Below, in pieces: positions 2,979-64,000 of a stretch of DNA of 64,000 bases (the stretch's first letter is position 1; every line of letters starts with the position of its first letter). Below the pieces are notes generated by a model. The model was given only the letters and a program-made list of their open reading frames with translations. It did no database searches and was not told the DNA's origin. The DNA lies in the NCBI GenBank assembly GCA_963575745.1, contig CAUYUJ010000248.1:186001-250000 (forward strand), given 5' to 3'. This DNA is from Prorocentrum cordatum. Its lineage: Eukaryota. The position numbers were made by a program, and so were the translations under genes.

Positions 2979-4386
2979 CAGCTCTAGCAGATGATTGACC
3001 ATGGCCATGCGCACGCCAGTGGGCCGCCTCCACCTGCGCTTAGGGCTGAGGCTGCTCTGCTTGTCAACTGAATTATGCCAGACGTGCGCTGCTGCGGTTT
3101 TCTGCTTAGGACCAGCGGCGAGGACCATGAGCCAAGAGTCTAGCACGTTACAAACTGCAGAACAAGCCGGATCCCGAGTCCCCAGCTCTAGTTGCAGCAA
3201 CGTGTCCAGGCATCTACCTCGCACGCGAGGTGATACTAGCTTCCCCAGAGACCTGCGCCACACAAAAAGGTTGGAAAGGGTGTATCTAAACACCTTGGCG
3301 CTGAACTCGACTCTGGGGATCACACCTCGGCGGACGATGGTCGACCCTCCTGGTCTGGCCTTACGTCCACAACTGGCAATGGCTGCCGTTCTCCTGACCT
3401 GCCTGACTGAAAATCTGCCTAGCCTGCGCATTGGGTCTAGCAGCTGCTACCTGGCCTCTGTCTAGCCAAGGTCTGGAGCGGTGACGCGGGGCTTCGAAGG
3501 GATGCCAGCTCGCTTGAGCTTCCGAACAACGTCGAGCAGCATTCCTTTCGTCATTGCCGATGATGCTGGATTTGTTCGAAATTCGACGGCCCTCGATAGC
3601 GCAGGCATCAGCAAAGTTCTTGCCTGCTCCCACCAGGCCTTCAACAATGGTACTGCGATGGCCCTGGATGCGGTTGTTGATATCGGCAACCCATGACGAC
3701 ACCTCGACGGATCTGTACCGACTAGAAATGGTTTCCTACATGTCGTACAACCCTACTCTGCCGAAGTCCACCCCCCTTTCCTCGCCTCCGCCACTATACT
3801 GATAAATGGCAGGACGGGAAGAGTGTGCGCCCTCCGCTCATGCAGCAGCCAGGGCGCGAGGTACAGGAGATATTCCAACAACAGGGCGCGCGCAGGCAGA
3901 CCGAGCTGGAGTCCTTTCTCTATCGCGTGATCCACATGGAGAGTGTCGTAAAATTCTAAACGGTCCCAGAGTACCGAAGCTGTTTTCACGTCAACGAGGG
4001 GTCGGGTTCTCAAAGCACAGCTTCGTCAGAAAAAGTTCGAAGCCACACACTTCTCAGGGCACCGTTTCCTGCGACTGCCGCATCCCACACCCCAGCGGCT
4101 TGCTGGGCCCATTCCGAGGTGTAGTGAGAACGGATGAAGGCCCACAGGCAGACGCCACGGGGGCCGAACATCGCAGACCAAAGTCGAGTCGAGTCGAGAA
4201 TGCGCATGCGAATCTGTACTCGAGTCGAGACAATGTCGAATTGTCTCATAAAAGAATGCTTTCCCAATGCGGTGCTTGCGAATTGAGACGTCGCTGGGCT
4301 GGGCAGTCTGAACGAGCGAGGAGGTCCGTCGTGATCTCGGCATACAACCATTTGAGAGTCGATCATTTCGAACACTGGGTCGGCAT

Positions 4387-5270: not shown

Positions 5271-5320
5271 TCCGTAGCCATCTGGGCTCAAGTTATGTGG
5301 GCTTAAGTTTTCGACTCAAG
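5271..5320 (+). other. Dinoflagellate spliced-leader relic with stacked degenerate copies
   Basis: tccgtagccatctgggctcaag matches TCCGTAGCCATTTTGGCTCAAG at 20/22, followed by ttatgtgggcttaag and ttttcgactcaag. Confidence 0.8.
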
Positions 5321-6294
5321 ATATGTGGGGTTAATTGTCCGAGGCTCCAGATCAGACGCCCCAGATCATTCCGATAGAGTTCCCCCCCGCGCAGAGGAAC
5401 ACTCGCGTCTTCATTGGCACAAAGCATTTACAGAGAGCAGGCTGGATAATTGCAAACCAGATACAAGGACCAACGATTTCTTTGCCCATGCCGCTGCCAT
5501 CGAAGTGTTGTTTTTGTCCGAGGCTGCTTGCATGCTCTGCCACCCGCAGTGTGCAGGTCAGTTCTTTTGGCAGAATCCGAAACAAATGCGGAGTCGTCAG
5601 TTGGGGATAAAGGAACCGTGCAGGTTACCACACGGCTTTCATAGGAGGTAAACCAAGACGGTGCATTGTCTTGTTGCGCAAATTCTCTAGGGACGCCGTC
5701 CTTGGCACACTGTGACGTCCACCATAAGGATGAGATCCAAGCAACCATCAAGTGAGCAATTTGTCGTATGCGACCCGTGCCCAGAATGCTCCGATGTTTA
5801 AACAAAAAAAGCCGCCTTGCCTGGCGTGCAGGTGTAGGTGGATCACAAAGGCGGGACCGGAGCAAAAATCACATGATAATTCGGAGTACGTGACCGCATC
5901 CCACATGTAAAGCGCTCCTACGTAACCAATCCAATCAGGGGCACTGGAGCAATTGCAAATAGCAAGCCGATTTGGGCTCGCGCCATGACATCCCATCGTT
6001 GGGCATGGTTCCCATCTGCGACAGATGCATGGCGCCAGCTTGAGCTCAATTCGAGCAGCATCTGTGCACCTTGCCACGGCCGTCACAGGCGAACCCGCGG
6101 TTATGAACTCGTGTTCGCACAGCCCGCGTGGGTTGATGTGCTTTTCGGGGAGGAGTGGCGAGACATGCTAGTGGACGAACAAAAAAGATTCGGCATTCCC
6201 CGCCAGCCCATCCGGCAACCAGAGTCCCGCTCCCCCATCGCGTGGTCTAACGCATGCTGACCTTGCTTGGCGTGGTCTTGGTGATGGGTCTGGC

Positions 6295-6468
6295 AGGAGG
6301 ACGAGGAGGAGCAGGAGGAAGAGGAGGAAGAGGAGGAGGAGGAGGAGGAGGAGGAGGAGGAGGGTGGAGGGCGGAGGGCGGAGGGCGGAGGGCGGAGGGC
6401 GGAGGGCGGAGGGAGGAGGAGGAGGAGGAGGAGGAGGAGGAGGAGGAGGAGGAGGAGGAGGAGGAGGA
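6295..6468. repeat. (GGA)n with GGCGGAG heptamer repeats
   Basis: Direct reading. Confidence 0.95.
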
Positions 6469-7502
6469 GCCGCCGCGCGCCGCCTCCCGAGGCCCCCATC
6501 AGAGCAGGGCCGGTCGGGGCACGTCGCTCCGAGTGCGGGGCGGTATGCGCAGCACGCTCTTCTCTCGGGCTCCAGCGCCGCATCGATGACGCTTGAGAGT
6601 GACCCTTCGCCGGAGTGACCTTGGGTGCTGCGGGCTAATCTGGGTCCCCCCCGATCGCTGATGAGCGCGACGCGATAGCGGCGGTCGGCGCGCCTGGATT
6701 TGGCCACGTTGCGCCCCCTCCGTCCGCGCACCAAAGCTCACTCTTACCCAGGGTCTTGCGCGTAGTCGACCGCATGAGAAGCTCGACGGACGGGCGTTTT
6801 CGCCCCGACTTCGGCCCTTGGGGCCCTCACAGATCGATCGGGGTCGAACGGATGCCGCGGGACAACGAGGCCGGTGGCTAAGGGAAGCTCGGTCGCGGTG
6901 CAGCATTGGGCTTCAGCATGTGAGAAGCGCTCCGAAGTGACAGCTCGGGAGCCCTCCACTTGGCGGTCGATCAATGCGTTCAACGCAGGGCTCGTGCGAG
7001 AGTCGTCTGAAGACGGGGTGGTTCGCATCAGCAGTCTCTTTCCCTGTGGGATCGGATGATGTACGCCTTTCGGGCCCAGGAGACTCAGATGCTCTGCTCT
7101 CGTCCTGTGGAAACGCGGGTAGTCGGCATCGGCATAAGCAGGATTTGGCTGCAAGTGGCATTTCGGCCACTAAACGCGATCATACGTGGGGGAATCGGAG
7201 GGAGATTCCATTTCCAGCGAGAAGGACGCACGCAGTGGTCACCGGCTTGGTCACCGCAGTCGTGGTCACTGGTACGCTTGCCTAAAAGCCCCTGGCGCCA
7301 GCGAGCTTGCCCAGACCTCCCTGCAGGACGCGGAGCCACACTGGCTCGCCCAGCAGCTGCTGGGGATCAAGGCCTCCGAGCACCGCTTCTCGACAGCCTG
7401 GACAGCACTGGGGCTCGCAGCCGCCACGGATGACGCCAGCGGCCCGCCTCGGCGCTGGCGCTGGGCCACGACCCTGCGCGCCCACGCCGCCATCGACCCG
7501 CC

Positions 7503-10500
7503 ATGCGCCCAGATGCCCTCCACCGCCGCGCTCCCCGCGGCGCGCGGGCCGCGGCGGCCGGCGGAGCGGAACTACCAGAGGTCGCCCGGGCCGCGCGGTT
7601 GCGGTCCTTGGGCCGGCAGCTGCGGGGAGCTCGCGGGCCCGGCGCTGGGGCGGCGAGACCTGGACACATCCCGTGCCCCAGGCCTGGCCTGGCCCGTCCT
7701 GGGCCCAGCAGCGGTGGTAGACGCCCTCCTGGCATGGCCAGGGTCCAGGCTTGGCCAGGCCTGGGGCAGTGGATGCGTTGTGGTCTCGTCGCCCGAGGTG
7801 CTGTCGCCGGGCTCGTGCGCGAGCACCTCATCGAGCTGGCGGGGGCGCCGCCGCTCGCGGTGGTGGCGCTGCACAGGCTGGCCGCGCTGTCCCGCCCCGC
7901 GCCCGGGCGGCGCCTCGAGGCGGGAGCCTCGGGGACGGCGGCGAGCCTCGCCGACCTCCTCGGGAGCCCCGAGGCGTTGCCCCCGAAGCAGTGGGCGCAG
8001 CTGCTCTGGGCCCTGGCGCGGCTGTCGCGGCCGCTGCCGCCAGGGGCCGTTGCTGCCGCCGCCGCTCGGGCGCCGCAGCTGGTGCCCCAGAATGTCGCCA
8101 ACGTGCTCTGGGCCTTCGCGACGGCTCGCGTGGGCAGCGAGGGGGCCGCGCCCCTCGCCGCCGAGGTGCGCCGCCGCGCCGTGGAGCTCGCCCCGGAGGA
8201 GCTCGCGGCTGCGGCGTGGGCCGTGTCGCGGCTGACCATGCCTGACTCTAGGCCTCCCAGATGGGGTCCGAGCAGATGGGGTCGGAGGAGCGCGCCGTAT
8301 CGCCGACACGTCGGCGATGCGGCTCGATGTGGGCCCCGAGTTTCTCCACGCCGACGGCGCCGATGCATCGCCGACGTCGCCGATGCATCGCCGATGTATC
8401 GGCAATGCGGCGCGATCCTCCGACCCCATCTACTCGGACCTTATCCGGGAGGCCTCCACTGACACGAGCGCTGGCGAGGGCGCGCTTTCGGTGCTGACCC
8501 AGGAGGCTCTGCGCAGGGGTTGGGAGGGATTCGGCACGCAGTCGATCAGCAACGTGCTGTGGGCCGTGGGCGCGCGCGGCCCCTGCGCGGCGCCCTGGAT
8601 GGAGGCCCTGGGTCAGGGGCTGGCTGGCGGTCGGCACGGCCGCGCTGTCGCGGGTGGCCACCGGTGGGAGGAGTTCGGGACCCACGAGCTCTGCAGCATT
8701 GTCTGGGCGTTCGCCACAGCAGCAGTCGACGGAGCGCCACTATTGGCGCCCATCGTGCGCGAGCTGCCCCGGCGCCAGCTGGGCAGCTTCCATGCCCAGG
8801 AGGTCGCGGGCCTGCTTTGGGCGCTGTCGGCGCTGCGCCAGAGCGCTTGGCAAGCACTGGAGGCCGCGGGCGTGCAGCGCGCGCCCGAGCTCGCGCCCCA
8901 GAGCCTCGCCAGTATCGCCTGGGCGGCGGCGACGGCCAGAGCCTCTGCGGCGCCAGGGGGCACCGCGGGACCGCTGCTGCAGGCGGTCTCCGCCGAAGCG
9001 GTGCGGAGGGGGATGGCGGAGTGGACCGTGCGGAGCGTGGTCAACACGGTCTGGGCCGTGGCCGCGGCCTCCGCACGCGACGTGCCTGGGCTCGTGGGCG
9101 CCGCTCTCGAGGCGTTGCGGGCCGCCCGAGAGGACGAGCTGTGGACTGCGAGGCACATACCCAGCGTGGCTTGGGCCTTGGCAGTGTTGCCCGCGCGGGA
9201 CGCCGAGCTCCTGGTCACCTGTGGGGAGGCGGCCATGGTGCGGGCTCCGGAGCTGCAGCTGCGGGGGCTGGCCAACGTCGCGTGGTCGCGCGCGGCGCTG
9301 AGGCTGCCAGACGAGGCCCTCGCGCGCGCGCTGGCACGCAGCGCCCTCGGTCGGCTGGCGGCGGAGCTGCCAGCTGCGCTGGCTGCTGCGGAGGTGCCTG
9401 GCGCGGCGCCGATTCTGGCGGTGTCCCTCGCTGAGATCACGTGGTCCTTCTGCACCCTGCGCTTCGATTTCGGCGTCCCAGGGGCTGCTCGCGAGGCGCT
9501 GTTGGCGCTCGGCCAGCGCATGGACGCGGCGGCCGCGCCGGTGTGCGGCCCGGCGCTCGCACTCGGTAGCCCCGCAGAGTGGCCTCTGGGCGCGGGAAGT
9601 GAGCCCAAGGTGGTGCGGCAGGGGCCTGGCTGGTGCGTGCTGCTGAAGCCGCCCGGCTGGGAGGTCGACACCAGCGAGACGGACCGCGCCCTGACGCTGC
9701 GGCGCGGGCGGCGGCCGCTCTCCGCCTTCCTCCGCAGAGTCTCCGGGGCCGCACCTCTGAGCGGCCGGCGGGACCTGGACTTCGGCTTCCTGCACCGCCT
9801 GGACACGCCCTCCTCAGGCCTCATCGTCGCAGCGCTGTCGTTCGAGGCCCTGTTTCATCTCCGCTGGGTGGTCGCCACTCACGGGATGTCGCGGGACTAC
9901 CTGGTGCTCTGCCACGGTGCTGTGGCTGACCCGGGACTCCGCTTGGATTTCCCGGTGCGCGTGGACGGCGCCGGGCCCAGCGTGGTGGCTGACGACGGGC
10001 AGCCAGCCCTCACCCACGTTCGCCTGCTCGGCCATTTCGGCCCGCCAGTCGCGCTGGCAGACGGGCCCAGCTTAGCCTCGTACTCGCTGTGCGTCTGCTC
10101 GATCGAGACAGGGCGCCGCCACCAGATACGGGCGCACATGACCCACGCGGGCCATCCCCTGGTCTGCGACGGGCGCTACGCGCTGGAGCGGCTGCACGAG
10201 GACCAGCGGCTGTGCCCCCGCAACTTCCCGGGTGTTGCCAGGGGCCCTGGCCCAGTTGGTGCCCCCATGATTGCTGTGGCAGGCCCAGATGGCTGCCAGG
10301 AGCACCCCTCACGGGGCCCAGAGGGCCCCAGGGGGGCTCCAACCTGGCGCGAAGCGCTTGGGGATTTCGGCACAAGTGCCAAAACCAGAAGATCAGCCCA
10401 GCACGAAACACCACATCGAATCCACGGGAAATCCGAAGGCCACCCTCGCGCGTCCACCACGCGATCGTCGTCGACACAAGCATCGAAACCATCGGGCCTG

Positions 10501-10908
10501 GGACACCGCTGGCAGCCCCCGAGCTTCCTGCACCGCTTCCGCCTGCACTGGGACGCCGCGGGCACCGTCGAGGGCCCGCTGCCGCGCGACCTGCGCGCCG
10601 CGCTGGCGGCGCTGAGGCCCGCGGACGCACGGGCCGCGGCGGCGGTTCGTGGCATCCTGAGCGGCGCGCTGCCGCGCGGCGCCGGCCCCGCGGGATGCGG
10701 CGCGCTGGGCGGGGAGCCTCATTTGCGGCGGAGCGCCGCCGCAGATCGCGACGACGGAAACGGGTCCTCCGGGTCACCCCAGGGGCGCGAAGATCATCGC
10801 GCTTCGCGCAGTCCAGCTTGGCTTGGAGAGGCGCCCTTCTCCAGAACGCCAGCGCGGGGGCGCGAAGATAACCGCGCGTCGCGGGGCGCGATGCGCGAAG
10901 TTAGGTGA
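7503..10908 (+). CDS. OPR/HPR-like helical-repeat protein fused to an RluA-family pseudouridine synthase (~910 aa after removing three insertions; termini uncertain)
   Basis: About ten W-containing repeats (PQNVANVLWAFAT, TQSISNVLWAVG, THELCSIVWAFAT, AQEVAGLLWALSAL, PQSLASIAWAAAT, LRGLANVAWSRAAL). Then RluA motifs LLKPPGW, GFLHRLDTPSSG (catalytic Asp 9802-9804), RDYLVLCHG, TGRRHQIRAHM..GHPLVCDGRY and, after removing an insert, CPRNFLHRFRL. Joined segments: 7503-7641, 7798-8251, 8469-10223, 10524-10908. Confidence 0.9.
7642..7797 (+). mobile_element. Introner-like inverted-repeat element forming a 156-bp GC-AG intron
   Basis: IR gggcggcgagacc/ggtctcgtcgccc plus inner catcc..tgccccaggcctggcc arms; flanking direct repeat ggcgctg/ggtgctg; GC at 7642 and AG|G at 7796-7797. 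Splicing gives RGPGAVAGL. Confidence 0.8.
8247..8463 (+). mobile_element. MITE/Introner-like element, 217 bp, 5-bp direct repeat CTGAC
   Basis: ~55-bp imperfect TIRs (aggcctcccagatggggtccgag.. / ..ctcggaccttatccgggaggcct); ctgac at 8242-8246 and 8459-8463. Removal joins the two reading frames. Candidate intron AG|GC 8252 to AG 8468, also 217 bp. Confidence 0.85.
10224..10523 (+). mobile_element. 300-bp in-frame TIR insertion splitting the RluA C-terminal motif
   Basis: cttcc at 10224-10228 and 10524-10528; imperfect ~30-bp TIR cgggtgttgccag../..ctggcagcccccg; ends cccgag. Removal gives PRNFLHR. Confidence 0.85.
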
Positions 10909-10912
10909 CCTA

Positions 10913-11092
10913 GGTCCTCCACCGGGCCCAGGACCGTCACAAAACGACTCAGGACGAAGAACTGGTCACAGCGGAGGGCCCTGTGGAACAGGAACCGTTC
11001 CCCTCAGGACCCGTGTGCTTCATGCCAAACAGAGTGCTGCGGGGGGCGCGCGGTATAGGGCGGGGCATCCTGGCGTGACTCGGTGGAGGACC
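10913..11092. mobile_element. 180-bp MITE-like element
   Basis: Perfect 12-bp TIR ggtcctccaccg / cggtggaggacc. Confidence 0.6.
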
Positions 11093-11124
11093 GGGGCGGG
11101 ACTCCGGTTTGAGACGTCCTTCCA

Positions 11125-11585
11125 GCCTCCTCATCGCCGTGCTCCTCGTCCTCCTCCCTGCTTTGCCCCCCACCCTCCTCCTGTTAGTCGTCACCCCCCT
11201 CCCCCTCCTGCTCCTCCTGCTGATCCTCCTCCTCATCCTCCTCCTCGGTCCTCGGTCCTCCTCCTCCTCCTCATCCTCATCCGTCTCCTCCTCCTCTTCC
11301 TTCTCCTCCTCCTCCTCCTCCTCCTCCTCCTCCTCCTCCTCCTCCTCCTCCTCTCCCTCGTCTTTCTCCTCCTCCTCCTTCCTCCTCTCCTCCTCCTCCT
11401 CCTCCTCCTCCGCCTCCTCCTCCTCTTCCTCCTCCTCCTCCTCTCCTTCCTCCCTCCCTCCTCCCTCCTCCTCCCTCCTCCCTCCTCCCTCCTCCTCCTC
11501 CCTCCTCCCTTCTCCTCCTTCCTTTTCCTCCTCCTCCTCCTTCATCCTCCTCCTCCTCCTCCTCCTCCTCCTCCTCCTCCTCCTC
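11125..11585. repeat. (CCT)n low-complexity tract
   Basis: Direct reading. Confidence 0.95.
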
Positions 11586-11732: not shown

Positions 11733-11775
11733 GGGATCGGCGGCACGTCTGTGCCACAGACGTGCCGCCGATCCC
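11733..11775. repeat. Perfect 43-bp palindrome
   Basis: gggatcggcggcacgtctgtg-c-cacagacgtgccgccgatccc (21-bp arms). Confidence 0.95.
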
Positions 11776-11879: not shown

Positions 11880-12790
11880 ATATTAACAGACCCACGTTGG
11901 AACCCAAGTCTGTGGGGGGGGGGAGTGAGAGGGGGCGGGCCTTGTTGAGGAGGCGGCGGGGCTTCTCAGAAGCCCTGGGCGCCTTCTGAGAAGCGTGAAG
12001 CGTCTCCAGGGAAGGCTCAGGAAGACTTTGCGGGCGGCGGTAGGCTTCCCCAGCCTTTTGAGGAGGTCCGCTCCTTCTCACTTCCCCCCTGGTCTCGCCG
12101 CCGAAGTGAGGAGGGGGCAAACATACGTTCCTGCGAAAGACGGGGGTGATTTCAGCCCATGGCCCTCACATCCTGGCCGTCGTGGTGATAAAGAACGCGA
12201 TGAATAATGTGTTTGCCTCGCGGTCTCCTTCGCTTCACGTTCTTCTCATGTTGCGTCACTGAGGGGGGACGAGAAGCGCAACGACAACGTCCAGCTCCTG
12301 TTCGAGTTGTTGGTGGTCGAGTTCCTCAGCTCAGAGCAAGTGGTCGAGGCCGTCGCGGCCCCCCCCCCGTCGGAAAATGGGTGCGGAAGCAGAAACAGCA
12401 GAAGTGTATGTGCAAGAGGGTTTGCGCCGCCGCGTGGAGCATCTCAAGCTGGCCGGTCGCCCTATCAGGACCAGATGCCATCAGTGTCTTCTTCTAGGTC
12501 GCCTGCAGGAGCGCAAATGTCAACGCGCTTCGCGGAGTTTGCCGTGGAGCCGTAAAGTTGATATTCTGCAGGAGGCGGCCTGAGAGCGCGAAGGTTGGGT
12601 GGCCTGGCTTCTTGGAGGAGGCCTACAGCCAGCTGGATCCAACATGACTCATTGCGGGGGAGGGCGTATCCCGTTGAATCGAGGAGGGGATGGCGAGCGC
12701 TGGCAGCACTCTACCAGCGTAAGAAGCCATCTCGTCCACCATTAGCGAAGGGCGATACCTCACATGTGGATCGTTGGGCGCCGCTCGATA
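11880..12790 (+). pseudogene. Possible decayed tyrosine-recombinase (DIRS-like) fragment
   Basis: SWRRPTASW...RRGWRALAALYQRKK resembles the C-terminal SLRRGGA...RGRW....RY pattern of tyrosine recombinases; heavily broken. Confidence 0.3.
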
Positions 12791-16135: not shown

Positions 16136-16235
16136 NNNNNNNNNNNNNNNNNNNNNNNNNNNNNNNNNNNNNNNNNNNNNNNNNNNNNNNNNNNNNNNNN
16201 NNNNNNNNNNNNNNNNNNNNNNNNNNNNNNNNNNN
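16136..16235. other. Assembly gap (100 N)
   Basis: Run of N. Confidence 1.
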
Positions 16236-37900: not shown

Positions 37901-38805
37901 GGAGGCATCTATAAGGAAAAGGAGTGCAGGAGGAGGAGGCGGAGAAGGAGGCAGGAGGAGAGGGAGGAGTAGGCAGAGGAGGAGGATGAGGAGGAGAAGG
38001 AGGAGAAGGAGGAGGAGGAGGAGGAGGTCGAGGCCCCGGTCTTTTCAATCTGGGCGTTTCTCTTCAATCACAAAGGTCTTCAGGGGCCGCCTCAGCGTGC
38101 CCTGCAGGGCCGCTAGAAACGCTCTGGGGCCGAGAGCTTTGGGGCCCATGGACTTGCAAACCGAATCACGACGTCTCCTTCTCCTCCTGTTCCTGTTCCT
38201 GTTCCTGTTGCTCCTCCTCCTCCTCCTCCTCCTCCTCATATTCTGCCTCTTCCTCCTCGTATTCTGCCTCCTCCTCCTCCTCCTCCTCCTCCTCCTCCTT
38301 GTCTTCGTCCTCCTCCTCCTCCTCCTCCTCCTCCTCCTCCTCCTCCTCCTCCTCCTCCTCCCCCTCCTCATCTTTCCTCTCCTCGTCCGGGAGGGCTCCG
38401 CCCTCCCAGCCTAGGATCGGCCTGGCAAGTGTCGGTGTCTGCGTCTCTGTGTTGTTCGCGTTCTCCCACAACTATGTCTGCACCAAGGGCGCCTTATCTG
38501 GGATTCCCACTGGTCCGTTTCGAATGTTGGGTGCGCCAGCCTCGCCCATCGGGCCCCGGCCGGAGGGTCGCAGTCCACCAGTAGTCTTGTCTCGCCCGTC
38601 AGGTCTTGGCAGCAGGGCCATGGCATGAGCGTTGGGCTTTCTGATCGCCAGTGGGGCCCCGCCAGTGGAGTCCTAGCCATAAAGTAGGGCCCAGGCGTGG
38701 TTCAACGTACAGTCACTGCTGAGCTCAGCCCGCCAGTGTCGTAACCATTCTCTGCGGAGGAAAAAGGAGGAGGACGAGCATTGTGGACACGCTCCTTGGC
38801 CCCAG

Positions 38806-39045: not shown

Positions 39046-39272
39046 TCGGCGGTTCAAGGATGGGGCTCTCAGGGATGGGGCCCCAAGGGTAAGAAATGAA
39101 GCAGTCAAGGTTCAGATTCTGATTCGCTTCCTACCCTCAGGGCCACATCCCACAGGACCCCGCATCTTTGCACCGACGATGTGGTCCTTACTCCCCTGAG
39201 GGACCCATCGGTCGGCTTCGACACCTCTTCTCAAGAGATTGTCGATACGATGGGGTCCGCCAGGGGGGGTAA
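39046..39272. mobile_element. Two adjacent hairpin/MITE-like elements
   Basis: ~50-bp imperfect arms at 39046-39095/39128-39180; a second pair cttactcccctg..ccatcg / cgatggggtcc..gggggtaag spans 39187-39272. Confidence 0.65.
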
Positions 39273-40171
39273 GTCGAGGAACAATGAATATCATAAACAT
39301 AGGCATTCGGGGGTCCGCACTGACTTCTTGGGTCGGCGCCGACCCCCTCCCTGTCGCGCGGAGCGCGCCAGGCGCGGCTCCGGAGGCGCCGCCAGGAGGC
39401 TCCAGCGCCGATCCAGGAAATCCTCGCGGACCTCCGAAAGTGCATGGTTGTGCCACGCCTTGCTCCTCGACTGAGGATCGCAGCTCCTCCGATTGTGGCT
39501 GGTCGCTGAGGGCGCTGGTGTGGCCGACCTCGGCGCCGCGGTCGCCGCGGGACTCGGGGAGCCAGCTCGCCCTCGCCGACGCGGCGGTGAGGTCGCCCCG
39601 CGTGCAGCAGCTCGCGATCGCCGGCCGCGGGCCCGCTCTGTCGGACCCCGCCGCCGCGGACGGCGCCGCGGGTTGGAGGCAGGAGCCATTCCGACTCTGC
39701 CGATTCTAATCGATCAGATTTCGAGGATGTCGTTCCTCTTACCTGCGAGTGGTGCTGACGTAGCGCAGGCGTTCCGAGGCAGCGATCGCGCTTGGAAAAA
39801 AAAAAAAAAAAAAAAGATTTCGAGGATGTCGATTCGATTCGAGGATTTCGATTCGATTCGACTCCGGATTCCGACGTCGGCGTGGGTTTCCTATGGTGTC
39901 TCGGTGCAGGCCTCGGCTCGGACCGCCGGGCGTCGGCTTCGATGTCTTCCAATCTTCAGGAGGAAAAGAAACACACAGACACAATTAATCCTCGATTCCC
40001 CAGAAAATATGGGAAAATATGGGAAGTGGTTGGGAAGACAGAAACCCAGAAAATATAGGAAAATATGGGGAATATTTTTATTTGTGTGTATTTATTTGTG
40101 TGTCCTGGGGCCCCTTCAAATCTGCCTGCCGACTCCTGCCGATTCGACGTACTTCGATTACCGATTCGATT

Positions 40172-41269
40172 GTGAAGGCCTTACGGCTGGTGCCGCCGAC
40201 CCTGGAAGAAGGCCCCCATGATGAAGGTGACAGCTGGAGGTGTTCGGGAAGGTTGGGACCAGACGTCGCGGAGAGTTCTCCTAAAGCTCCGTGAGGTTCG
40301 CAAGAAGCGTATGACGAAGAGCACCGCTCGGCCAAGCTATCTGCCTATGTGCTCTCGAAGCCGCTGGGAGAGGAGAGGGGGGAACCAGGAGTGGGAGTAG
40401 GAGGAGGAGGAGGCGGTGGAGGCGGTGGAGGCGGAGGAGTAGGAGGAGGAGGAGGAGGAGGAGGAGGAGGAGGAGGAGGAGAACGAGGAGGACAACAAGG
40501 AGGAAGAAGAGGAGAAGCAGGAGGAGGAGCAGGATGAGGAGAAGGAGGAGGAGAAAAAAACCTCGTGGGAGCCTTTTCGAGGCTCTGGCAGTCTCCTCGG
40601 GCTTCATGGCGGCCTCTTGCCGCCATCTGGGACCGTCTTGGAGGTCGGGGCCATCTAAGGTCAGACGGGGTCACCATCGCCGTCTTTGAGGGCATCTTTG
40701 ATCGTCTTGGCGGCAATGCAGTGCCATCCTGACCATCTGGGAGGCGAGCCTGGTCGTCTCTTGGAGAATTCTGTGGGGGCCATTTGGGGGCTCTCTTGAA
40801 GCGTTTGGGCGATTTCGGGCCCCTCTTGGATTGTCTGGTGGCCCAAGGCCCATCCCGCCACCGCGCCTTGGTATGATACTGTTGGGGTTCTTCTGGGAAC
40901 CCTCTTGGAGCTCTCTCTGGGCTCTCCTACAGGCTTCTCTCCAAGCTCTCTTAGAGTCCCGAGAGGCTTGAAGAGGGGCCCCAAGGCACCAAGAGGTTCT
41001 TAAAGGCTGAAATCGGCCACGCGCAAAGGGGGGTCAAGGGGAGGCGGGAAGGCTTCTTAGAAGTACCCCTGCCTCTTAGAAGGCGCGGGCCATCTCTGTA
41101 GTTGTGAGGCCCGCGCCTTCTAAGAAGCAGCCTCCTTCGAAGGAGCCTTCCCCCCTGCCCCTGCCCCCTTATGCGCGCCGCCAATTAAGAGAGCCCCATG
41201 AGGGCCCCCGCATCAGCCCGCAATAGTGTTACACCAAAGGTTCCTGGTATGATACTGCTGAGGGTTTTC
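40172..41269. mobile_element. ATTG(C/T)GAAGGCC-terminus element flanked by 29-bp direct repeats
   Basis: Same terminus as 13302 and 57948; direct repeats 40143-40171 and 41270-41298 match at 27/29. Confidence 0.65.
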
Positions 41270-41621
41270 TTCGACGTGCTTCGATTGCCGATTCGATTTT
41301 CCGATTCGGTATTGGGCCATCCTGCCTGAGGCCTACAACAGGGACCACCACTACCTTTCAAAAGGGACCGCCAGCCCACCTTTCAGGAAGGCTGCGCGAA
41401 CGAACCTTCATGCGATTGCGATGCGGAGAAAAATAGCATCCTGCCCGAGGCCGGCGGCAGCCGCCAGGCAGGCGGGCGAGCCGTACTTGAGCATCGCGGA
41501 CATCCGGAGTGCACAGGCCAGGCTGGACCTCGGGAGGGCAGCGTCGCCAGCCCTGCAGCACCAGAGCACCAGGGAGCTGGGCGGGCGGGCGAGGACGCCG
41601 GTGCGGGGCTGAGGGCTCTGC

Positions 41622-41870
41622 GCCTTCGGACGGGTCCGGGTGTGGTGGTGTCGGAGGATCTCGCGCGGTATCGCCGATGAGTCGGCGATGCGGCTCGATA
41701 TGGAGCCCGATGCTCTCCAGGCCGACGTCGCCGATGCATCGCCGACGCCGCGGATGCCTCGGCGATGCCTCGGCAATGCCTCGGCGATGCCTCGGCGATG
41801 CATCGGCGATGCATTGGCAATGCGGCGTGATCCTCTGGCCCTATCTACTGCGACCCCATCTGGGAGGCTT
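41622..41870 (+). mobile_element. Second, diverged copy of the 8247-8463 MITE
   Basis: Shares gtcggagga..gtatcgccga..gtcggcgatgcggctcgat..gccgatgcatcgccga..ggcaatgcggcg.gatcctc..gggaggc. Confidence 0.85.
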
Positions 41871-43717
41871 CTAAGGGCGGCGTTTATTTGTAGGGTAGAG
41901 TTCAGCGGCCAGGTCCAGCCATGATTGGCGGTAGTGTCCTGCAGCGCTACTTCGGCGGAAGACGCTCTCGGGCGAGGCAGGCGGGCGATGCGGTTCCAGC
42001 CAGCAGAAGCGGGTTGCCCCTCTGCTTGCGCGTTGAGAAAAAAGTGTTCCTAACACCCTTTGAGATCGCGCTCATCGGAGAGGCCGCCGACGTGAGGCTT
42101 CACAGCCGCTGCCCCGCAGAAACGTGGCCCTTCTGCCAACATCGCGCACATGGACGGGCTGGTCTCGCGAGGGGCCCACTCCCCATCCAGCTGCCCCCGC
42201 CAGCATCGCGAAGAGACCACGACGCCTCTTGGAAATCGCGGCCAGGGCCCTCGACACCAGCCATCTCCTCCCAGGGCTGGAATCTTCTAAAGCCGGACCG
42301 ATGGGCTGATCTGTGAGATTCCCAGGGCCTGAAGTGGGTGATTCTTTCACGGCGCCTGTGCGTCAGAGACTTCCCCTTCTCATTTCGTTGGGCTTCGCGT
42401 AATAGCATCACAGCCAGAGCCAATACCATCTGCGCCTTTCAGCGCGGCCTCGGCCAAGCGACAAACTCTCGCTGCGTCGTGCGAGAAGGCAAGCGCCAAG
42501 CCCAGGGCCATGTGCGACCGCATCCCAGCAGACGTGGGGACTCGGCTCTCGCGTCGTCGCCACTCCCCTTCTCCCTCCTCATCCCATGCCGGTCTCCTCC
42601 TGTTGCTGATCCTCCTGTTCCTCCTCCTGTTCCTCCTCCTTTTCTTTGTCCCTGTTTCCTCTTGCTGCTGCTGCTCCTCCACGTCCCTGTCCTTGGCTTT
42701 GCGCGGACTTTTCCTGGCGGTGGCGCAGCGTTTATCACTCCCTCCTGCTCCTCCTCCTCCTCCTCCTGCTCCTCCTCCTCCTCCTGCTCCTCCTTCTCCT
42801 CCTCCCCCTCCTCCTGCTCCTGCTGCTCCTTCTTATCCTCCTCCTCCTTCTCCTCCTCCTCCGCCTCCTCCTCCTTTTGACATTTCACAGATTGAAGCAC
42901 CGATGGGGCTGAAGCGTCAGAATCCTTTTCCTTTCCATCAACTTCCCTGGCCTCCTCAGGCACAGGTCCGCTTCACCAGGCGGTCGTTTCGCCCATGCCG
43001 TTATTCTTCTTCGTCAGGAGTCCTGTTCAGGTTCTCTTTGCTGGGGTTCGCTTCGCCGGGGCCATCTTCGCCAGAGTCCTTGTCACAGCTTCGTTTCATT
43101 GGTGTCCATTTCGCTGAGGCTCCTCTTCGCCAGGGTCAACTTTCTCAGAGTTCGTCTCGCCTGGCTCGGTCGAACGGGCGGGCGCACGGGTGGGCGAGGC
43201 ATAAAGCGGACGATGCGAGCGGGCAGACCCTCACGGGCGGGCGGGTGGACTCTAACAGGTGGGCGGGACAATAAAGCGGGTGGGCTGTCAAGCGCGCGAG
43301 TTGGCGGGCCCCAACGGGGGGGGCGCGGGCGGACAGGAACGGGCGAGCGGGCGGGCGGGCGGGCCGCAACGGCAGAGCGGAGCGGGCCCGGCAAGGAGGA
43401 CCGAGCAAAGAGGAACGAGCGAAGAGGATTGGGCGAACAGGACTCGGCGTGCTGAGTGCGAGACCGCGGGCGAGGCGGACCGGTCGGGAGGAGCGGGCCC
43501 GGCGAAGTGGGCCCCTGGGCGGACACGACCTTATTAATGACGAAGCGGATCCGTGCGAAAGGGCGAAGCGGATCCGTGCGAAGCGGACCCCGGGTGAAGA
43601 GGGCTGGGCGAGCAGGACTCAAGGAGAGGCGGACCCCAGGCAAAGAGGAGCTCCACCCCTTCTTTTCCCCCACCCGCTTCCCGTCTCCTCTTCTTCTTCG
43701 TCTCCTCCTCCTCCTCC

Positions 43718-47059: not shown

Positions 47060-48275
47060 ACCATCATCCTTATTATCATACTCACCATCACCAGCACCAT
47101 CATCTGCAGCATCGGCATCAGCATCAGCATCATCATCGTCATCATCATCAGCAGCATCATCATCAACATCATCACCATTATCTGCAGCAGCAGCATCACC
47201 ATCAGCATCAACATCATCACCAGCATCACCATCAGCATCATCAGCAGCAGCATCGTCGTCATCCTCATAATCATCATCAGCAGCATCATCAGCAACATCA
47301 TCAGCAACATCATCAGCATCGTCATCAGCCGCATCATCAGTATCATCATCAGCAGCCTCCTCACCATCCTCACCATCCTCACCACCATGATCGTCAGTAT
47401 GATCAAGAACATCAGCATCAACATCATCATCGTCATCATCATCAGCATCATCAGCATCACCATCAGCAGCATCGTCATCATCATCATCAGCATCATCACC
47501 ATCACCATCACCATCATCATCACCACCATCACCATCACCACCAACACCGTCATCATCATTATCATCACTATCAGCAGCAGCAGCACCACCTCAACATCAT
47601 CATCATCATCATTATTATCATCATCATCATCATCATCATCATTATCATCATCATCATCATCGCCATCATCACCATCACAGATGACATCATCACCACCGCC
47701 ATCATCATAGTCAGCATCAGCATTGTCATCACCACCACCACCACCACCATCATCATCTCATCATCATCAGCATCATCATCAGCAGCAGCATCATCGTTAT
47801 ACTCAGTATCATCAACATCATCATCAGCAGCACATCAGCAGCACCATCAGCATCATCATCATCATCATCATCATCATCAGCATCAGCATCACACGCTTCC
47901 TCTATTACACGCAACCGCCGGCATGCGTTGTACATCATAGTCCTCCTCGTCTTTCTCCTGACCCCCTCCTCCTGCTCCACATCCCTCGTGTTCCTCCGAT
48001 CTCTTCCTCCTCCTCCTCCTCAAATCCTCCTCCTCCTCCTCCTCCTCCTGCTCCTCCTCCTCCTGCTCCTCCTCCTCCTCATCCTCCTTCTGCTCCTCCT
48101 GCTCCTCTTCTTCCTCCTCCTCCTCCTCCTCCTCCTCCTCCTCCTCCTCCTCCATCCTCCTCAGGAGGAGGAGCAGGAGGAGGAGGAGGAGGAGGAGGAG
48201 GAGGAGGAGGAGGAGGAGGAGGAGGAGGAGGAGGAGGAGGAGGAGCAGAAGGAGCAGGGGGAGGAGGGATTGAGG
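47060..48275. repeat. CAT/CAG tract, then CCT abutting AGG
   Basis: Direct reading; strand switch at ~48162. Confidence 0.9.
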
Positions 48276-48744
48276 GAGGAGGAAAAGAACAGGTGGGGGG
48301 TGGGCGAAAGAGATCAGAGAGAGGAGGTGGAAGATTGGAGGAGGCGTGGTGAACCTGCAGCCCAGTGGTCCAGGAGTCCAGAACCCCCTCAGCAAGTCCA
48401 GGGCGGCGGAGTTCTGCGCCGACGTCGCTTTCCCATGAAAATGCGACGTCTGCGCAGCATCCATGTTTTTCAGCGCCCAGCGCCGCGGAGCCAGAGGCGG
48501 GAGCAGAGGTCCTAGGAGGCCCCAGGACGTCCCAGCAGGCCTGGGCAGGTCCCAGGAGGTCCCGGGAGGGTCCCAGAAGCCCTTGGAGGTCCCAGGATGC
48601 CTTGGGATGTCCCAGGAGGCCCTTGGGAGGCCCTGGGAAGTCACAGAAGGCCCCAGAATGCTTTAGGATGTCGCAGGAGGCCCCAGGAGGCACCAGGAGG
48701 TCCCAGGAGGCCCCAAGAGGCCCCAAGAGCCCGCAGACCACCAG

Positions 48745-49520: not shown

Positions 49521-52132
49521 CAAGTTTCGAAACGCACTCAAGTTTAAGATACAAATCAGTGCAACAGCCATTACGAGTCATCGAAACACCCCTCACCCCT
49601 TATCGAAACACCATCGTAGCTTGCACGGATTTCCATCCTAAACTTCAACGCGGGAAGCTCTTTGTGATCCTTGTTTTCCCGAAGACGGCTGCGCAACTGC
49701 ATGCGTCCTGCCGCCCCTGATTCACCGACTCCCCTGCTGATCGTTTCTGGATGGGCTGGTGGGGATACTTTTTTAGTCAGCGGCCGCGGGCGAGCGCGCC
49801 AGCGGCGAGTCCAGTCAAAGCGGGGCACGCAGCGACGAATTAACCGAAGGCGACGGAGGGTGGCCACACCTACAGCGGCAAACCGAGCCCTCACGCAGCA
49901 GCCCAGCGGCGGACCGGCGGGTGGGGGGGCAGCTGAAACTGAGTCGTATTGCCAGCGTGCAAGTATGCAAAGCGTCGGGGCTCCAGGGACTCGGGACACA
50001 CGACGACCCGGGCCAGAAGCCGAAATTAATGCAAGGACGCAGCCCCGGACAACTGCGTGAGTACCAGGGTGGCCCGAAGGACCGCCGGTCGAAGAATTAA
50101 AGCCAGGAGGCGAGAGCGTTGGCGCAGTCAACCATGCCGTCAGCAGGCACAGGAGGGGCCCGAGGACTCCCTTCACGGCACTTCGGCCAACGAAGACTGC
50201 CGCAAGGGAGGGTCCAGGCGTGCCTCCGCCTTTTTACATCGCTTGCACCGCTTACACCAGCCAACCAATACCTCATATTCCTCCCCCATTCTTCCATCCG
50301 CCCCTGTCCCTCCCCTCCCCACTCCCTCCACGTATCCTCCCCATCCCCTCTTCCCTCCCATCCCCTCGCCTCCCCCCACCTCCCCCTCCCGAGCCAGCGC
50401 GCGGGACAGGGCGGACGTCGAGCGGGTGTCGACCGAGAGCGCGCAGCAGAAGCCGGACTTCGCCAGCGTGAGGGCAGCGCGTTCGCGACATGACCCGCCC
50501 GATGCGGCGCCGAGCTGGAGGAGGAGGAGGAGGAGGAGGAGGAGGAGGAGGAGGAGGAGGAAGGGGGAGGAGAGGAAGGGGGAAGGAGGGTCAGAAGGGA
50601 GGCGGAGGAGGCAGAGGGGGAGAAGGAGGGGGACGATGAACGGGAGGAAGGAGGAGCTGGAGCTGGAGGATGCGGAACCATCGTACGGCTCGCTCTACAG
50701 TGTTAGATCTGGCGTTGTATGGCTGGTGCGCGTGCAGATCTTGCATCGAAACTGACCCTGATTGGGGTGCGTCGGTGCAGGTGAGAAGTAGTGTCCAACG
50801 ATAGTGCAAGCCGTAACCAGATCTGAAATACTCCAGTTCCTAAGAACTGTTTCGCTGTGGGCGCTTCTGTCAGCAGAGGTAGTCCAGGGTCTATGTCACG
50901 GCCCCGCCAGGGGATCACTACTGGCACGTCCGCCTCGTCTCGGGCTTGTGCCCCTGCTTCGCTGTCGTCCCCCATATCCCTGGCCCCGATTCGTCCTCCT
51001 AATCGACCTCCTCCCTTTTCACCTCTTCCACAAGTTTCTCAACACGCAAACTTCTCTCATCTCTCCCCTGACGCTGTCTTTGGTTTCTCCGCCTATCTCG
51101 TAGACTGATTGCTCACACAGAATTGCCCCGAGCTTGTTTTCCATATTGTTCTTTCCCATCAGAACGCTCTCGGCCCTTCAGACATGATGTTCCCGCTGCA
51201 GCGTTGGCTGCATTTCAGGATTGGTGCGTTGCTGCCGTCGTTCGTATGTTTCGGTTTCGCCCCAGCGCGGACCACGTTTCCAGTCCGTTTCGTTCCTCGT
51301 CGTCGTCGTCCCCTCTCTTTTCCCTCCGCCTTCCATTGGCTCCCATGCGTCTCCTACTTGTCCTGCTCCTTCTGGTCCTCCCCATTCCTCATAATCCTGC
51401 TCTTCCTCCTTTTCATTATCCTGCTCATCCGACCCCCCCTCCGTAGCACAGCGTAAAAAGACCCCCCTTTCTGATCGTGTATCACACGATGGGGCCACTG
51501 TGGGGACTCCGGGTCATTTGGGCCACTTCAACAAGACTTAAACGCAGAGTCAGATCCACAAGGCAACGCGCGGGCCGGCACAACAGCCAGACTCACACTA
51601 AAGCCAGTTTAAGGTGGGTGTGTGTGGCGGGGGGGGGGGAGGCCAGGCTACCAGGGGATCCACGCAAGTCAGATCGCATAATTCTGATAGCATCTAGAGG
51701 ATACGGAGTGGACGAAGAAGGAGGAGCGACCGAGAAGGGGGGGCAGGAGGGGGAGGAGCGAGGAGCAAGACCAGGGCCGCCGGCCGTGAAGGCAGGCGAG
51801 CCTATCTTGGAGGGCGCCACCCGCCACGGCGGCCGCCTTTTGTTGCTGCTGCGCCCCCCGCTGCAGCACCAGAGGTGCTGCCAGGGGCGCCGCGGCCACG
51901 GGCGAGACGTCGCAGCCCGAGCGGCGCCAATTGGCAGCACCAGAGGTGCCGCCAGTGGGCGCGTGCGGCGCGTGCGGCCGAGTTGTGGGGGCTGGTGGGC
52001 ATCCTGGCTGCCCGTCCGCTGCGCCTGCTGCCTCGCCCGCGCCCGATGTTTCGCTTCAGGCTGCCGTGACCAGCGCTCCTCTTCCTCATACCTATTATTC
52101 CTCATCCTGCTCTTCCTCATCCATTCCTTTTC

Positions 52133-54019: not shown

Positions 54020-54908
54020 ACCTCGTAGCCATTTTGGTTCAAGCCAGAACGTTGTCTGCGGCACCAGCGCCCATGCTGCCGTCGCGGCTGTGTCCCCCGC
54101 AGCCTTTCCGCGCCGGCATCCCATGGGACCTACCCGCGCCTTAATCACGATTAAGGATGGCACCACGTACATCAACGACCGTGAGCTTGCGCGCTCTTAC
54201 CTCTCGAACCTCGCGGCATCGGCCAACAAGGTCACCCGCAATGACGAGATTTCCCAGCGGCTTGCAGTTGTCGAAGTTGGCATGCGGGTGCAGCAGCTGG
54301 TTGGAGGGTCATTCTCTACTCCTCTTGCCACAGCCATGTCGGCCCTGAGGAAGCTGAACACGGCGGTGAACGTGGCCAAACACGTTGACACGGAGTGCGA
54401 CGACATGCCCATCGACAGCGTCCAGCAGCAGACGCCCCAGGAGCTGGAGTTCCAGGGGGCCAACAAGCGGGAAGACCGCACGGCGACTCTACAGCAGAAG
54501 TAGAGCAAGGACCTCTACCAGAAGCGAATGGAGAAGAAAGTCAACAAGGACAAGAAGGACCTGAAGGCCAAGACAGACGAGCTTCCAGCCTGCCCCCAGG
54601 GGCATTCGCTCAAGAAGTTCAAGATCAAGGCCCGCGAGAAATACTTCTGTTCGGTCTGCGGCGCAGACATCCCGATTGACAATTACACGGCGGCGTGCAA
54701 AAAGCAGTGCGACTACGACGCGTGCGAGGATTGTGGCTGAGCCCTCGAGGAGCCCTGAGTCCCATCCCGTCTGCCGTCTGGTCTCGCCCTTGCCCTCCCC
54801 TGGCTTTTGCTTTCCCGCTTTCGCTTCCCCGACAACGCGTAGTCTATCCTGTAGAAGGCTCGAAGAGCACATCTTATACTGTGGCGGTCTCGCATTTTCG
54901 GGAGGAAA
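54020..54908 (+). pseudogene. SL-capped retrocopy encoding a ~205-codon protein with a C-terminal Cys/His zinc finger; one internal TAG
   Basis: SL relic at 54023-54043; ATG 54123; TAG 54501-54503; frame continues to TGA 54738-54740; CPQGH..CSVC..C...CDYDACEDC; no introns; 16-bp TSD at 54004-54019 and 54909-54924. Confidence 0.85.
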
Positions 54909-56961: not shown

Positions 56962-57009
56962 CATCTGCGTCGCAAGCCGCAGTCGCGCCAGCCGTTTTGT
57001 TTTTTTTTT

Positions 57010-63159: not shown

Positions 63160-64000
63160 TCGCCGTTGTCGATCTCGCCCCCGCAGCCACCGTCGCTTCG
63201 CCGTCCCCCCAACCGCCGTCGTCCCACCGTGGTCTGACCCCCCATCCACCGCTGTCTCGCCCCCCAGCCGCCGTCTTCTCACCGTCTTCTCACCCCCCAG
63301 CCATTGTCGTCTCACCCCCGCCGCCGTCGTCTCGCCGTCGTCTCACCCATCAGCCGCCCTCGTCTCATCGTCGTCTCAACCGCCAGCCACCGTCCGTCTC
63401 ACCTGTGTGTCACCCCCCAGCCGCCGTCGTCTCACCCCCCAGCCACCGTCGTCTCGCCGTCGTCTCACCCCCCCGGTCACCCGCCCTCCCCCCCCAGCCG
63501 CCGTCGTCTTACCGTCGTCTCACCTTCCGAAAGCGCACAGGAAAGCATGCGGTTTCCCCAGATCTTTCGGGATTGATTTTCAGGCCCAATGGGTTTGCTC
63601 TGCAGCCAACTCTCCGAAAGCGAATTCCGACAACAAAAAAGCAGGAGATTCCTCCAGATCATCCGGGCTCGTTTTTCCAGGCCCGATAAAATTTCGTTGC
63701 CGCCGATTCTCCAAAAACGAATTTCGAGCATATGAACGCGTGAGATTCCCCCAGTTCCGTCGGGCTTAATTTTCAGGCCCGATGGATTTTCGCTGCCGCC
63801 GATTCCCCGAAAGCGAAATCCGAGCACAGGAACGCATGAGAACCCAAAGATCCTCCGGGCTTGATTTCCAGGCCCGATGGGCTTTCGCTGCTGCCGACCC
63901 TCCGAGAGCGAATTCTGAGTACAGGAAAGCATGAGATTCCCCCAAATCCGTCGGGCTTAATTTTCAGGCCCGATGGATTTTCGCTGCCGCCGATTCCCCG
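63160..64000. repeat. CCGTCGTCTCA repeats followed by resumption of the dimeric satellite
   Basis: Same motifs as 59405-59505 and 57345-59400. Confidence 0.9.

Follow-up and report, generated by a model that had tools for sequence, protein, structure and literature searches.

A pseudouridine synthase gene of the dinoflagellate Prorocentrum cordatum carries three transposon-shaped inserts, and forms of the gene joined across each of them occur in assemblies of RNA type. The gene lies in a stretch of 64,000 nucleotides (nt) of contig CAUYUJ010000248.1 (assembly GCA_963575745.1, positions 186,001 to 250,000, forward strand), which is called the window here and whose first letter is position 1 of all coordinates. 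The inserts lie, within a single gene, at or near the places where an initial annotation made from the letters of the DNA had put them. The relevant features include terminal inverted repeats (TIRs) and an element resembling miniature inverted-repeat transposable elements (MITEs):

7503..10908, + strand: pseudouridine synthase gene with helical repeats (WA motif) and an RluA-type domain; coding sequence of about 2.74 kb after removal of the three inserts
7642..7797, 156 nt, + strand: insert 1, a hairpin element recognized by its inverted repeat, its fold and an RNA joint; GC..AG borders, then G
8242..8246 (left) and 8459-8463 (right), + strand: CTGAC target-site duplication of insert 2, perfect over 5 nt, read from the sequence
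8247..8458, 212 nt, + strand: insert 2, a MITE-like element of a multi-copy family with ends TCTAGGCCTCCC...GGGAGGCCTCCA, delimited by comparison with a second copy
10224..10523, 300 nt, + strand: insert 3, an element with a short imperfect TIR that splits a conserved motif between CPRN and FLHR
10224-10228 (left) and 10524..10528 (right), + strand: CTTCC direct repeat of insert 3, read from the sequence and recovered as the 5 nt common to both sides of the RNA joint

The region 7300-10950 has a G+C content of 69-74%, and a single long reading frame runs along the + strand, passing from frame 0 (7434-8462) to frame 1 (8236-10908), with a presumed start codon at 7503. The gene product consists of repeated helical units with a recurring W-A motif and a C-terminal RluA-type pseudouridine synthase domain, which matches Pfam PF00849 with an E value of 1e-16 at about 9637-10146. 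When the inserts are removed, with insert 2 taken out as 211 nt, the in-frame joined product has 912 amino acids (aa). Its top protein match, P0001 (96% identity, 827 aa), is annotated as an "unnamed protein product" of Prorocentrum cordatum. The first and last exon segments of P0001 map onto the window at 100%, and the middle alignments span skipped stretches and score lower; P0001 is therefore the published model of this very gene. Five proteins were aligned, namely the conceptual product, P0002 (48% identity, from a transcript assembly), P0003, P0004, and the paralogue P0005. The sites of inserts 1 and 2 are variable linkers in this alignment, and the homologues have no matching insertion there. 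A scan of 7000-11200 against Rfam gave no match at E <= 1.

Insert 1 has arms of 50 nt (7645-7694 and 7748-7797) that are 80% complementary, and a single extended hairpin is predicted for its RNA (-128.6 kcal/mol, z -7.38), a fold equalled by none of 200 shuffled sequences. The flanking direct repeat is weak, consisting of a 2-nt overlap or of an imperfect GCG/GTG, and blastn found no second copy of the insert in the window. The arms of insert 2 (8250-8320 and 8385-8455) measure 71 nt and are 87% complementary; 34 of its 40 terminal positions pair, and the predicted fold reaches -160.5 kcal/mol (z -12.64, none of 200 shuffles being as good). The ends of insert 2 at 8247 and 8458 were set by aligning it with another member of its family in the window:

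41617..41873, 257 nt, + strand: diverged second copy of the insert-2 family (blastn, 83.6% over 134 nt) with its own 5-nt duplication AGGGC

Each of these two copies is thus bounded by its own perfect 5-nt duplication (CTGAC and AGGGC), which is direct evidence of transposition.

The inverted repeat of insert 3 is the weakest of the three: 12 of the first 15 terminal positions pair, the terminal stem comprises 10228-10237 and 10513-10523, and the fold of the whole element is ordinary (z -1.06, with 15 of 100 shuffles as good). Here, too, blastn found no second copy in the window. Exact removal of the 300 nt rebuilds the sequence CPRNFLHR, a motif of the catalytic domain that is invariant in all five aligned proteins. 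Two further observations concern the interior of this insert. A 25-nt word (positions 255-280 of the insert) recurs at a spacing of about 186-190 nt in a tandem array at 57000-59400 and near 63870. The segment 10299-10335 has high RNA depth (a bin of 142 in X1, one of the runs described below), and several contigs continue into foreign sequence on either side of it; the segment is a short repeat or a word of low complexity common to well-expressed transcripts.

The initial annotation had described the inserts as unrelated elements of 156, 217, and 300 nt, each with its own TIRs and flanking direct repeats. They are indeed mutually unrelated, having only words of 7-9 nt in common (E at least 0.13), and the sizes given for inserts 1 and 3 stand. 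Insert 2 measures 212 nt and not 217, its borders having been misplaced by about 10 nt. TIRs occur in all three inserts and the direct repeats CTGAC and CTTCC are present; the repeat of insert 1 and the TIR of insert 3 are weak. CCCGAG forms the 3' terminus of inserts 1 and 3 alike, the six letters CTCGGG being common to their ends. This sequence had been proposed to supply the acceptor AG, and it does place an AG at the 3' end of both inserts; only insert 1 has a usable donor (GC) to go with it. The in-frame G+C content at third codon positions is 0.65 in insert 1 and 0.61 in insert 3 versus 0.86 in exon 3, and these inserts are therefore not coding sequence.

In general, the anatomy is that of MITEs, with TIRs, target-site duplication, small size (153-300 nt), and no open reading frame (ORF) for a transposase. 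As for the hallmarks of introner elements, an inverted repeat of at least 8-20 nt lies within 30 nt of each end in all three inserts (weakest in insert 3), and a direct repeat of 3-5 nt is found at the borders of inserts 2 and 3 and not of insert 1. The presence of several copies with different flanks and target duplications, a further trait of MITEs, is seen for the insert-2 family. The ends of inserts 1 and 2 had no match in a collection of metagenome contigs, which apparently does not contain this organism and is silent on copy number. A window-wide scan for compact palindromic elements yielded 15 non-overlapping candidates, with insert 3 not among them. Outside microsatellite and tandem-repeat regions, about five palindromic elements lie in the other 60 kb versus two (three with insert 3) in the 3.4-kb gene.

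Public sequencing runs were selected by sampled words. Twenty runs shared such words, none of them as many as half; two are recorded as polyA RNA (98 million letters), and the contig totals of the remaining runs, about 95-146 million letters, are near the 98 million of both. Run sizes and word counts are as expected if all were transcriptomes. Four runs were aligned at 90% likeness, namely X1 (guessed to be RNA), X4 (type unrecorded), X18 (polyA RNA contigs), and X21 (raw RNA reads, of which about 12% of the run was read). In such alignments holes in depth prove nothing, repeats can create joints, and a joint with a side shorter than 30 nt at a likeness below 95% may be spurious. The following joints across the inserts were obtained:

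7640 to 7797, 156 nt skipped: one X1 contig, depth 4.89, short side 54 nt, 2 nt common to both sides
8247 to 8459, 211 nt skipped: one X1 contig, depth 8.24, short side 21 nt, 2 nt common to both sides
8244 to 8458, 213 nt skipped: one X18 contig, depth 3.04, short side 103 nt, 3 nt common to both sides
10223 to 10524, 300 nt skipped: X1 (depth 7.2), X4 (depth 3.35), and one X21 read, short sides 43, 135, and 29 nt, 5 nt common to both sides

All three inserts are thus bridged in X1, and the 300-nt joint is found in three of the four runs. A bin within insert 1 (7666-7787) has zero depth in all four runs, and a bin within insert 3 (10350-10471) has zero depth in three and 0.19 on one strand in X21, with the flanks covered in both cases. 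Insert 2 is read at depths of about 90-310 in the contig runs (up to about 310 in X1, about 90-165 in X4 and X18), and many different loose flanks begin at 8246-8250; the high depth and the varied flanks indicate that the insert-2 family is abundant and present in RNA from other loci. Three further joints, between 7914 and 9917 (opposite strands), from 8209 to 10593, and from 8071 to 9354 (with 37 foreign letters), were taken as other loci that share short stretches with the gene. Protein-fragment searches with junction-spanning or insert-retaining queries found nothing, the word-based picking of candidates being weak on such an alanine-rich query.

The RNA does not match the window throughout. 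X1, X4, and X21 have differences from it in common; one contig shows about 10 of them in 1037 nt. X18, on the other hand, has the letter of the window at 9336, where X1 and X4 differ, and no difference in three of its four listed gene pieces, so that a window-like allele is transcribed. Fifteen listed differences between window and RNA were checked (9 unlisted ones and position 9903 were left out), and 9 of them are synonymous, which indicates that the gene is under purifying selection. At 12 of the 15, within 7600-9820, an A or T of the window corresponds to G or C in the RNA (5 A>G, 5 T>C, 2 T>G); this bias could be due to RNA editing, to a GC-favoured second allele or paralogue, or to mutational drift of the window copy. 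RNA editing has been reported for P. cordatum (PMC10666404; only parts of this source are represented in what is taken from it here).

The initial annotation had called for a check of RNA junctions, and joined forms without each insert are indeed present in the RNA-type assemblies, 156 nt being skipped at insert 1, 211 or 213 nt at insert 2, and 300 nt at insert 3. Its statement that the gene has no other intron is borne out as well: the ORF runs on without a break, and listed contig pieces cover 7370-10658 without further joints, apart from 8010-8142, a segment with non-zero RNA depth. The claim that precise removal restores the coding sequence holds for the motif at insert 3, and the proposed cut at 8237-8453 would keep the frame at insert 2. 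In the RNA joints, insert 2 is skipped as 211 or 213 nt. The 211-nt form keeps the frame (...TMPDSDTSAG..., within the 912 aa), and the 213-nt form runs into an immediate stop (...TMPD*). Removal of 217 nt, that is, of the element with one duplication (including the cut just mentioned), is in frame and absent from the RNA joints. A standard GA..AG intron from 8244 to 8451 would also be in frame and was rejected because no contig shows it.

The nucleotides common to both sides of a joint allow several registers for each splice border. The standard test for a dinoflagellate intron (GT, GC, or GA as donor and AG as acceptor, usually followed by G) is passed by insert 1 only, whose three registers include 7642-7797 with GC..AG and then G. 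The six registers of insert 3 (CT..AG, TT..GC, TC..CT, CC..TT, CC..TC, and CG..CC) contain no donor that starts with G, and AG occurs only in CT..AG. For insert 2, the seven registers of the 211- and 213-nt joints together (AC..CC, CT..CA, TC..AC, CT..CT, TA..AC, and AG..CT) show neither a donor nor an acceptor signal. For all three inserts, the cuts fall close to the terminal stem of the predicted fold, 0-5 nt outward from its first base pair. According to Table 2 of the genome paper, GC is the commonest donor in P. cordatum (51.4%) and AGG acceptors account for 79.7% (PMC10666404).

We consider it fairly probable that three small non-autonomous DNA transposons of three families entered a formerly intron-free gene and that each of them now acts as an intron, that is, as an introner element. 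The joined forms would then be products of RNA processing of the same allele, presumably with the spliceosome as agent. After the insertion of the three transposons into the coding sequence of the pseudouridine synthase, the inverted ends of each element would pair in the transcript, so that the two exon ends come to lie 0-5 nt from the stem base, where the element would be cut out. For insert 1, the duplicated target would supply GC as donor, and the CCCGAG with which the element itself ends would supply AG as acceptor. The sites at which inserts 2 and 3 would be removed are bounded by direct repeats and differ from GT/GC/GA..AG, as is described for non-canonical introners of Amoebophrya. A slip of the cut by 2 nt at insert 2 would account for its two products, of which one is productive and the other breaks the frame. 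The more specific idea that P. cordatum removes MITE-like hairpins by a structure-guided route, without GT/GC/GA..AG and with cuts at the hairpin base within the duplicated target that are sometimes imprecise, is advanced only tentatively and may well be wrong. The observation of the initial annotation is thus confirmed and its introner interpretation partly supported, the support not extending to a gain that is still in progress.

Several points weigh against removal from RNA, and part of them would be explained by insertion polymorphism. In that case the window would represent a transposon-ridden allele or paralogue, effectively a pseudogene, and the RNA would stem from copies in which inserts 1 and 3 had never been present and from which insert 2 was excised with two different footprints. 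The joints are known from RNA-type runs alone, two of the four being of unrecorded type, and the strains that provided the RNA may carry insert-free alleles. The joints of inserts 1 and 3 are confined to the runs with the allele of about 1% divergence (X1, X4, and X21), and the sole joint of the window-like X18, of 213 nt, breaks the frame in a contig that differs from the window at 8213. The 211-nt joint has a short side of 21 nt at 90% likeness, and such joints may stem from repeats. At insert 2, the joints read CTGAC-T-CTGAC and CTGAC-TGAC, that is, both target duplications plus or minus 1 nt, and resemble the footprints of transposon excision. Inserts 2 and 3, moreover, lack a donor starting with G in every register compatible with the RNA, so that these junctions are non-canonical for a spliceosome. 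A literature search in which some sources were represented in part did not find non-canonical introner removal in Prorocentrum, and inserts 1 and 3 have no second copy in the window. In favour of polymorphism are also the A/T letters of the window at 12 of the 15 differences, as if this copy were drifting, and the richness of the P. cordatum genome in duplicated genes (PMC10666404). We nevertheless judge insertion polymorphism unlikely. Three insertions and two independent excisions would have to fall within 3.4 kb at a divergence of about 1%; RNA processing needs the three insertions and an imprecise cut at insert 2. X18 has the letter of the window at 9336 and yet lacks insert 2 and has zero depth inside inserts 1 and 3, and its form would itself be a frameshifted gene. 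The predominance of synonymous differences (9 of the 15 checked) does not fit a pseudogene, nor would an unselected pseudogene explain why the gene has about 8-10 times the density of hairpin elements found in the remainder of the window, although this comparison was made after the fact. The lengths of inserts 1 and 3, which are multiples of three, and their freedom from stop codons were set aside as a signal, since the observation is post hoc and neither reading accounts for it; the chance of being stop-free in GC-rich window sequence is 0.57 and 0.31 for inserts 1 and 3, respectively, and the joint chance about 0.02.

An artefact of cDNA synthesis, in which reverse transcriptase jumps the hairpins between short direct repeats so that the mRNA keeps the elements and the cDNA lacks them, seems very improbable to us. 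It would agree with the microhomology of 2-5 nt at each joint, with the position of the joints at the stem base, with the different insert-2 joints in different runs, and with the very stable hairpins of inserts 1 and 2. Insert 3, however, has a weak hairpin and yet an identical joint in three runs from three studies. Products of this kind usually make up the smaller part of the molecules, but no contig covers the interior of insert 1 or insert 3, and hairpins of the insert-2 family are read at high depth in the same libraries, which shows that a hairpin alone does not cause skipping. A retained insert 2 of 212 nt would, furthermore, shift the frame before the catalytic domain. That the gene contains ordinary introns as in its published model, for example GC(10209)..AG(10523) and about 8166-8500, is hardly credible, even though P0001 was built in this way and GC is the commonest donor of the species. 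The model joins 10208/10209 to about 10524 as a GC..AG intron and thereby drops LCPRN, of which CPRN is invariant in the homologues; it also removes about 8166-8500, introduces two mini-introns in 7842-8010, a coding stretch covered contiguously by contig X1-2, and adds exons at 3840-3926, 12262-12354, and 50407-50490, so that it extends from 3840 to 50490. In the RNA contigs, by contrast, 10223 is followed by 10524, and 8244 by 8458 or 8247 by 8459. The P0001 model thus looks chimeric and mis-spliced. Annotation of the P. cordatum genome relied on mapping and on PASA modified for GC and GA donors only, with GT, GC, and GA being accepted (PMC10666404), and transcripts with the observed joints of inserts 2 and 3 could therefore not be accepted by this pipeline.

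The proposal of introner-type removal from RNA includes a gene that once had no introns. The average P. cordatum gene has 9.8 introns, whose mean length is 4.7 kb, and introns occur in 83.7% of the genes (PMC10666404). A coding sequence of 2.7 kb with only three interruptions, all of 156-300 nt and shaped like transposons, is atypical for this genome and therefore fits a formerly intron-free gene, and intron gain fits as well. For a comparison of intron types the window offers no second clear gene, because Pfam gave no match for 16 of its 19 other long ORFs and only matches of low-complexity type (DUF3671, DUF6594, and New_glue) for the other three. The initial annotation had further suggested that the gene was possibly retroposed. 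This is not borne out by the nearest relict of a spliced leader, which lies 2.2 kb upstream of the start codon:

5272..5292, + strand: relict dinoflagellate spliced leader with 2 mismatches to the query motif, 2.2 kb upstream of the ATG at 7503

With this motif, two relict matches (2 mismatches each) are found in the window versus 0.00 expected, the second lying at 54023-54043 on the + strand. Behind the first leader, within 5272-5340, parts of its 3' end are repeated (GGCTTAAG, GACTCAAG), a pattern that recycled cDNAs also show. The leader at 5272-5292 is possibly the mark of a retrogene, one that is untied to this gene; given its distance of 2.2 kb and the microsatellite in between, retroposition is a possibility only.

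The rest of the window is rich in repeats. Other palindromic elements are found at 41011-41186 (176 nt), 39272-39472 (201 nt), and 11733-11775 (43 nt, near-perfect, 34/35), all without clear target duplications. The tandem array mentioned above (57000-59400 and about 63870) has units of about 187 nt and large inverted blocks. Microsatellites of the GAG/CTC type occupy 6290-6470, 11230-11540, 37950-38380, and 48025-48285 and give rise to spurious poly-E, poly-L, and poly-P frames on both strands. A run of 100 N at 16136-16235 is a scaffold gap.

The locus is a clean single-gene example of what appear to be transposon-made introns, with intact anatomy, three unrelated families, and a conserved motif that is rebuilt only by exact removal. 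It also shows how a published gene model came to be wrong because only standard splice sites were permitted. The gene moreover provides a small test case of PCR size for the question whether a core dinoflagellate can remove hairpins at non-standard sites, as the parasite Amoebophrya does. If the structure-guided route is true, the insertion of a transposon into coding sequence would be tolerable straight away, non-canonical introns of the Amoebophrya type would extend to core dinoflagellates, and the published annotation would mis-model an unknown number of genes.

Nonconventional introns of Euglena have borders other than GT-AG, and their ends are joined by base pairing; this lineage is unrelated, and the likeness is one of analogy only. 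Transposons with TIRs and target duplications reportedly create introns in Polarella and Symbiodinium (work attributed to Roy et al., 2023) and in Micromonas and Aureococcus (attributed to Huff et al., 2016). In these introners one splice site is said to come from the element and the other to be recruited from the duplicated target, and the families are reportedly recognized by numerous almost identical introns whose splice sites are standard. Insert 1 fits this pattern of element-borne and target-recruited splice sites.

In Crypthecodinium cohnii, 2-9 nt are repeated at both splice sites of introns and one copy is kept in the mRNA (Mendez et al. 2015, PMC5032977, to the extent that parts of this source convey it). 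The overlaps of 2, 3, and 5 nt found here are similar, whereas the boundaries in C. cohnii are not described in those parts as derived from hairpins or transposons. The closest likeness in terms of organism is provided by P. cordatum itself, as introner elements were found in 2.4% of the introns of the CCMP1329 genome, where inverted repeats (8-20 nt) and direct repeats (3-5 nt) lie no more than 30 nt from the intron ends (Dougan et al. 2023, PMC10666404). The process is thus already known for this genome, and the point added here is that the published gene model is mis-built at this locus. The survey covered annotated introns with GT, GC, or GA donors only, as far as the parts of that paper drawn on here go, whereas in the present gene two of the three elements leave at other sites and the published borders are misplaced. 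The non-canonical introners of Amoebophrya strains A25 and A120 (Farhat et al. 2021, PMC7789003) belong to a basal parasitic lineage in which more than 60% of the introns are non-canonical and U1 has apparently been lost; our case concerns one gene of a free-living core dinoflagellate, in which removal at the RNA level is fairly probable and absence from an allele the less likely alternative. The likeness to Amoebophrya extends to hairpin-forming inverted repeats, direct repeats of 3-5 nt over the borders, the absence of a fixed splice dinucleotide, splice sites that vary in position relative to the hairpin, and an anatomy resembling that of MITEs.

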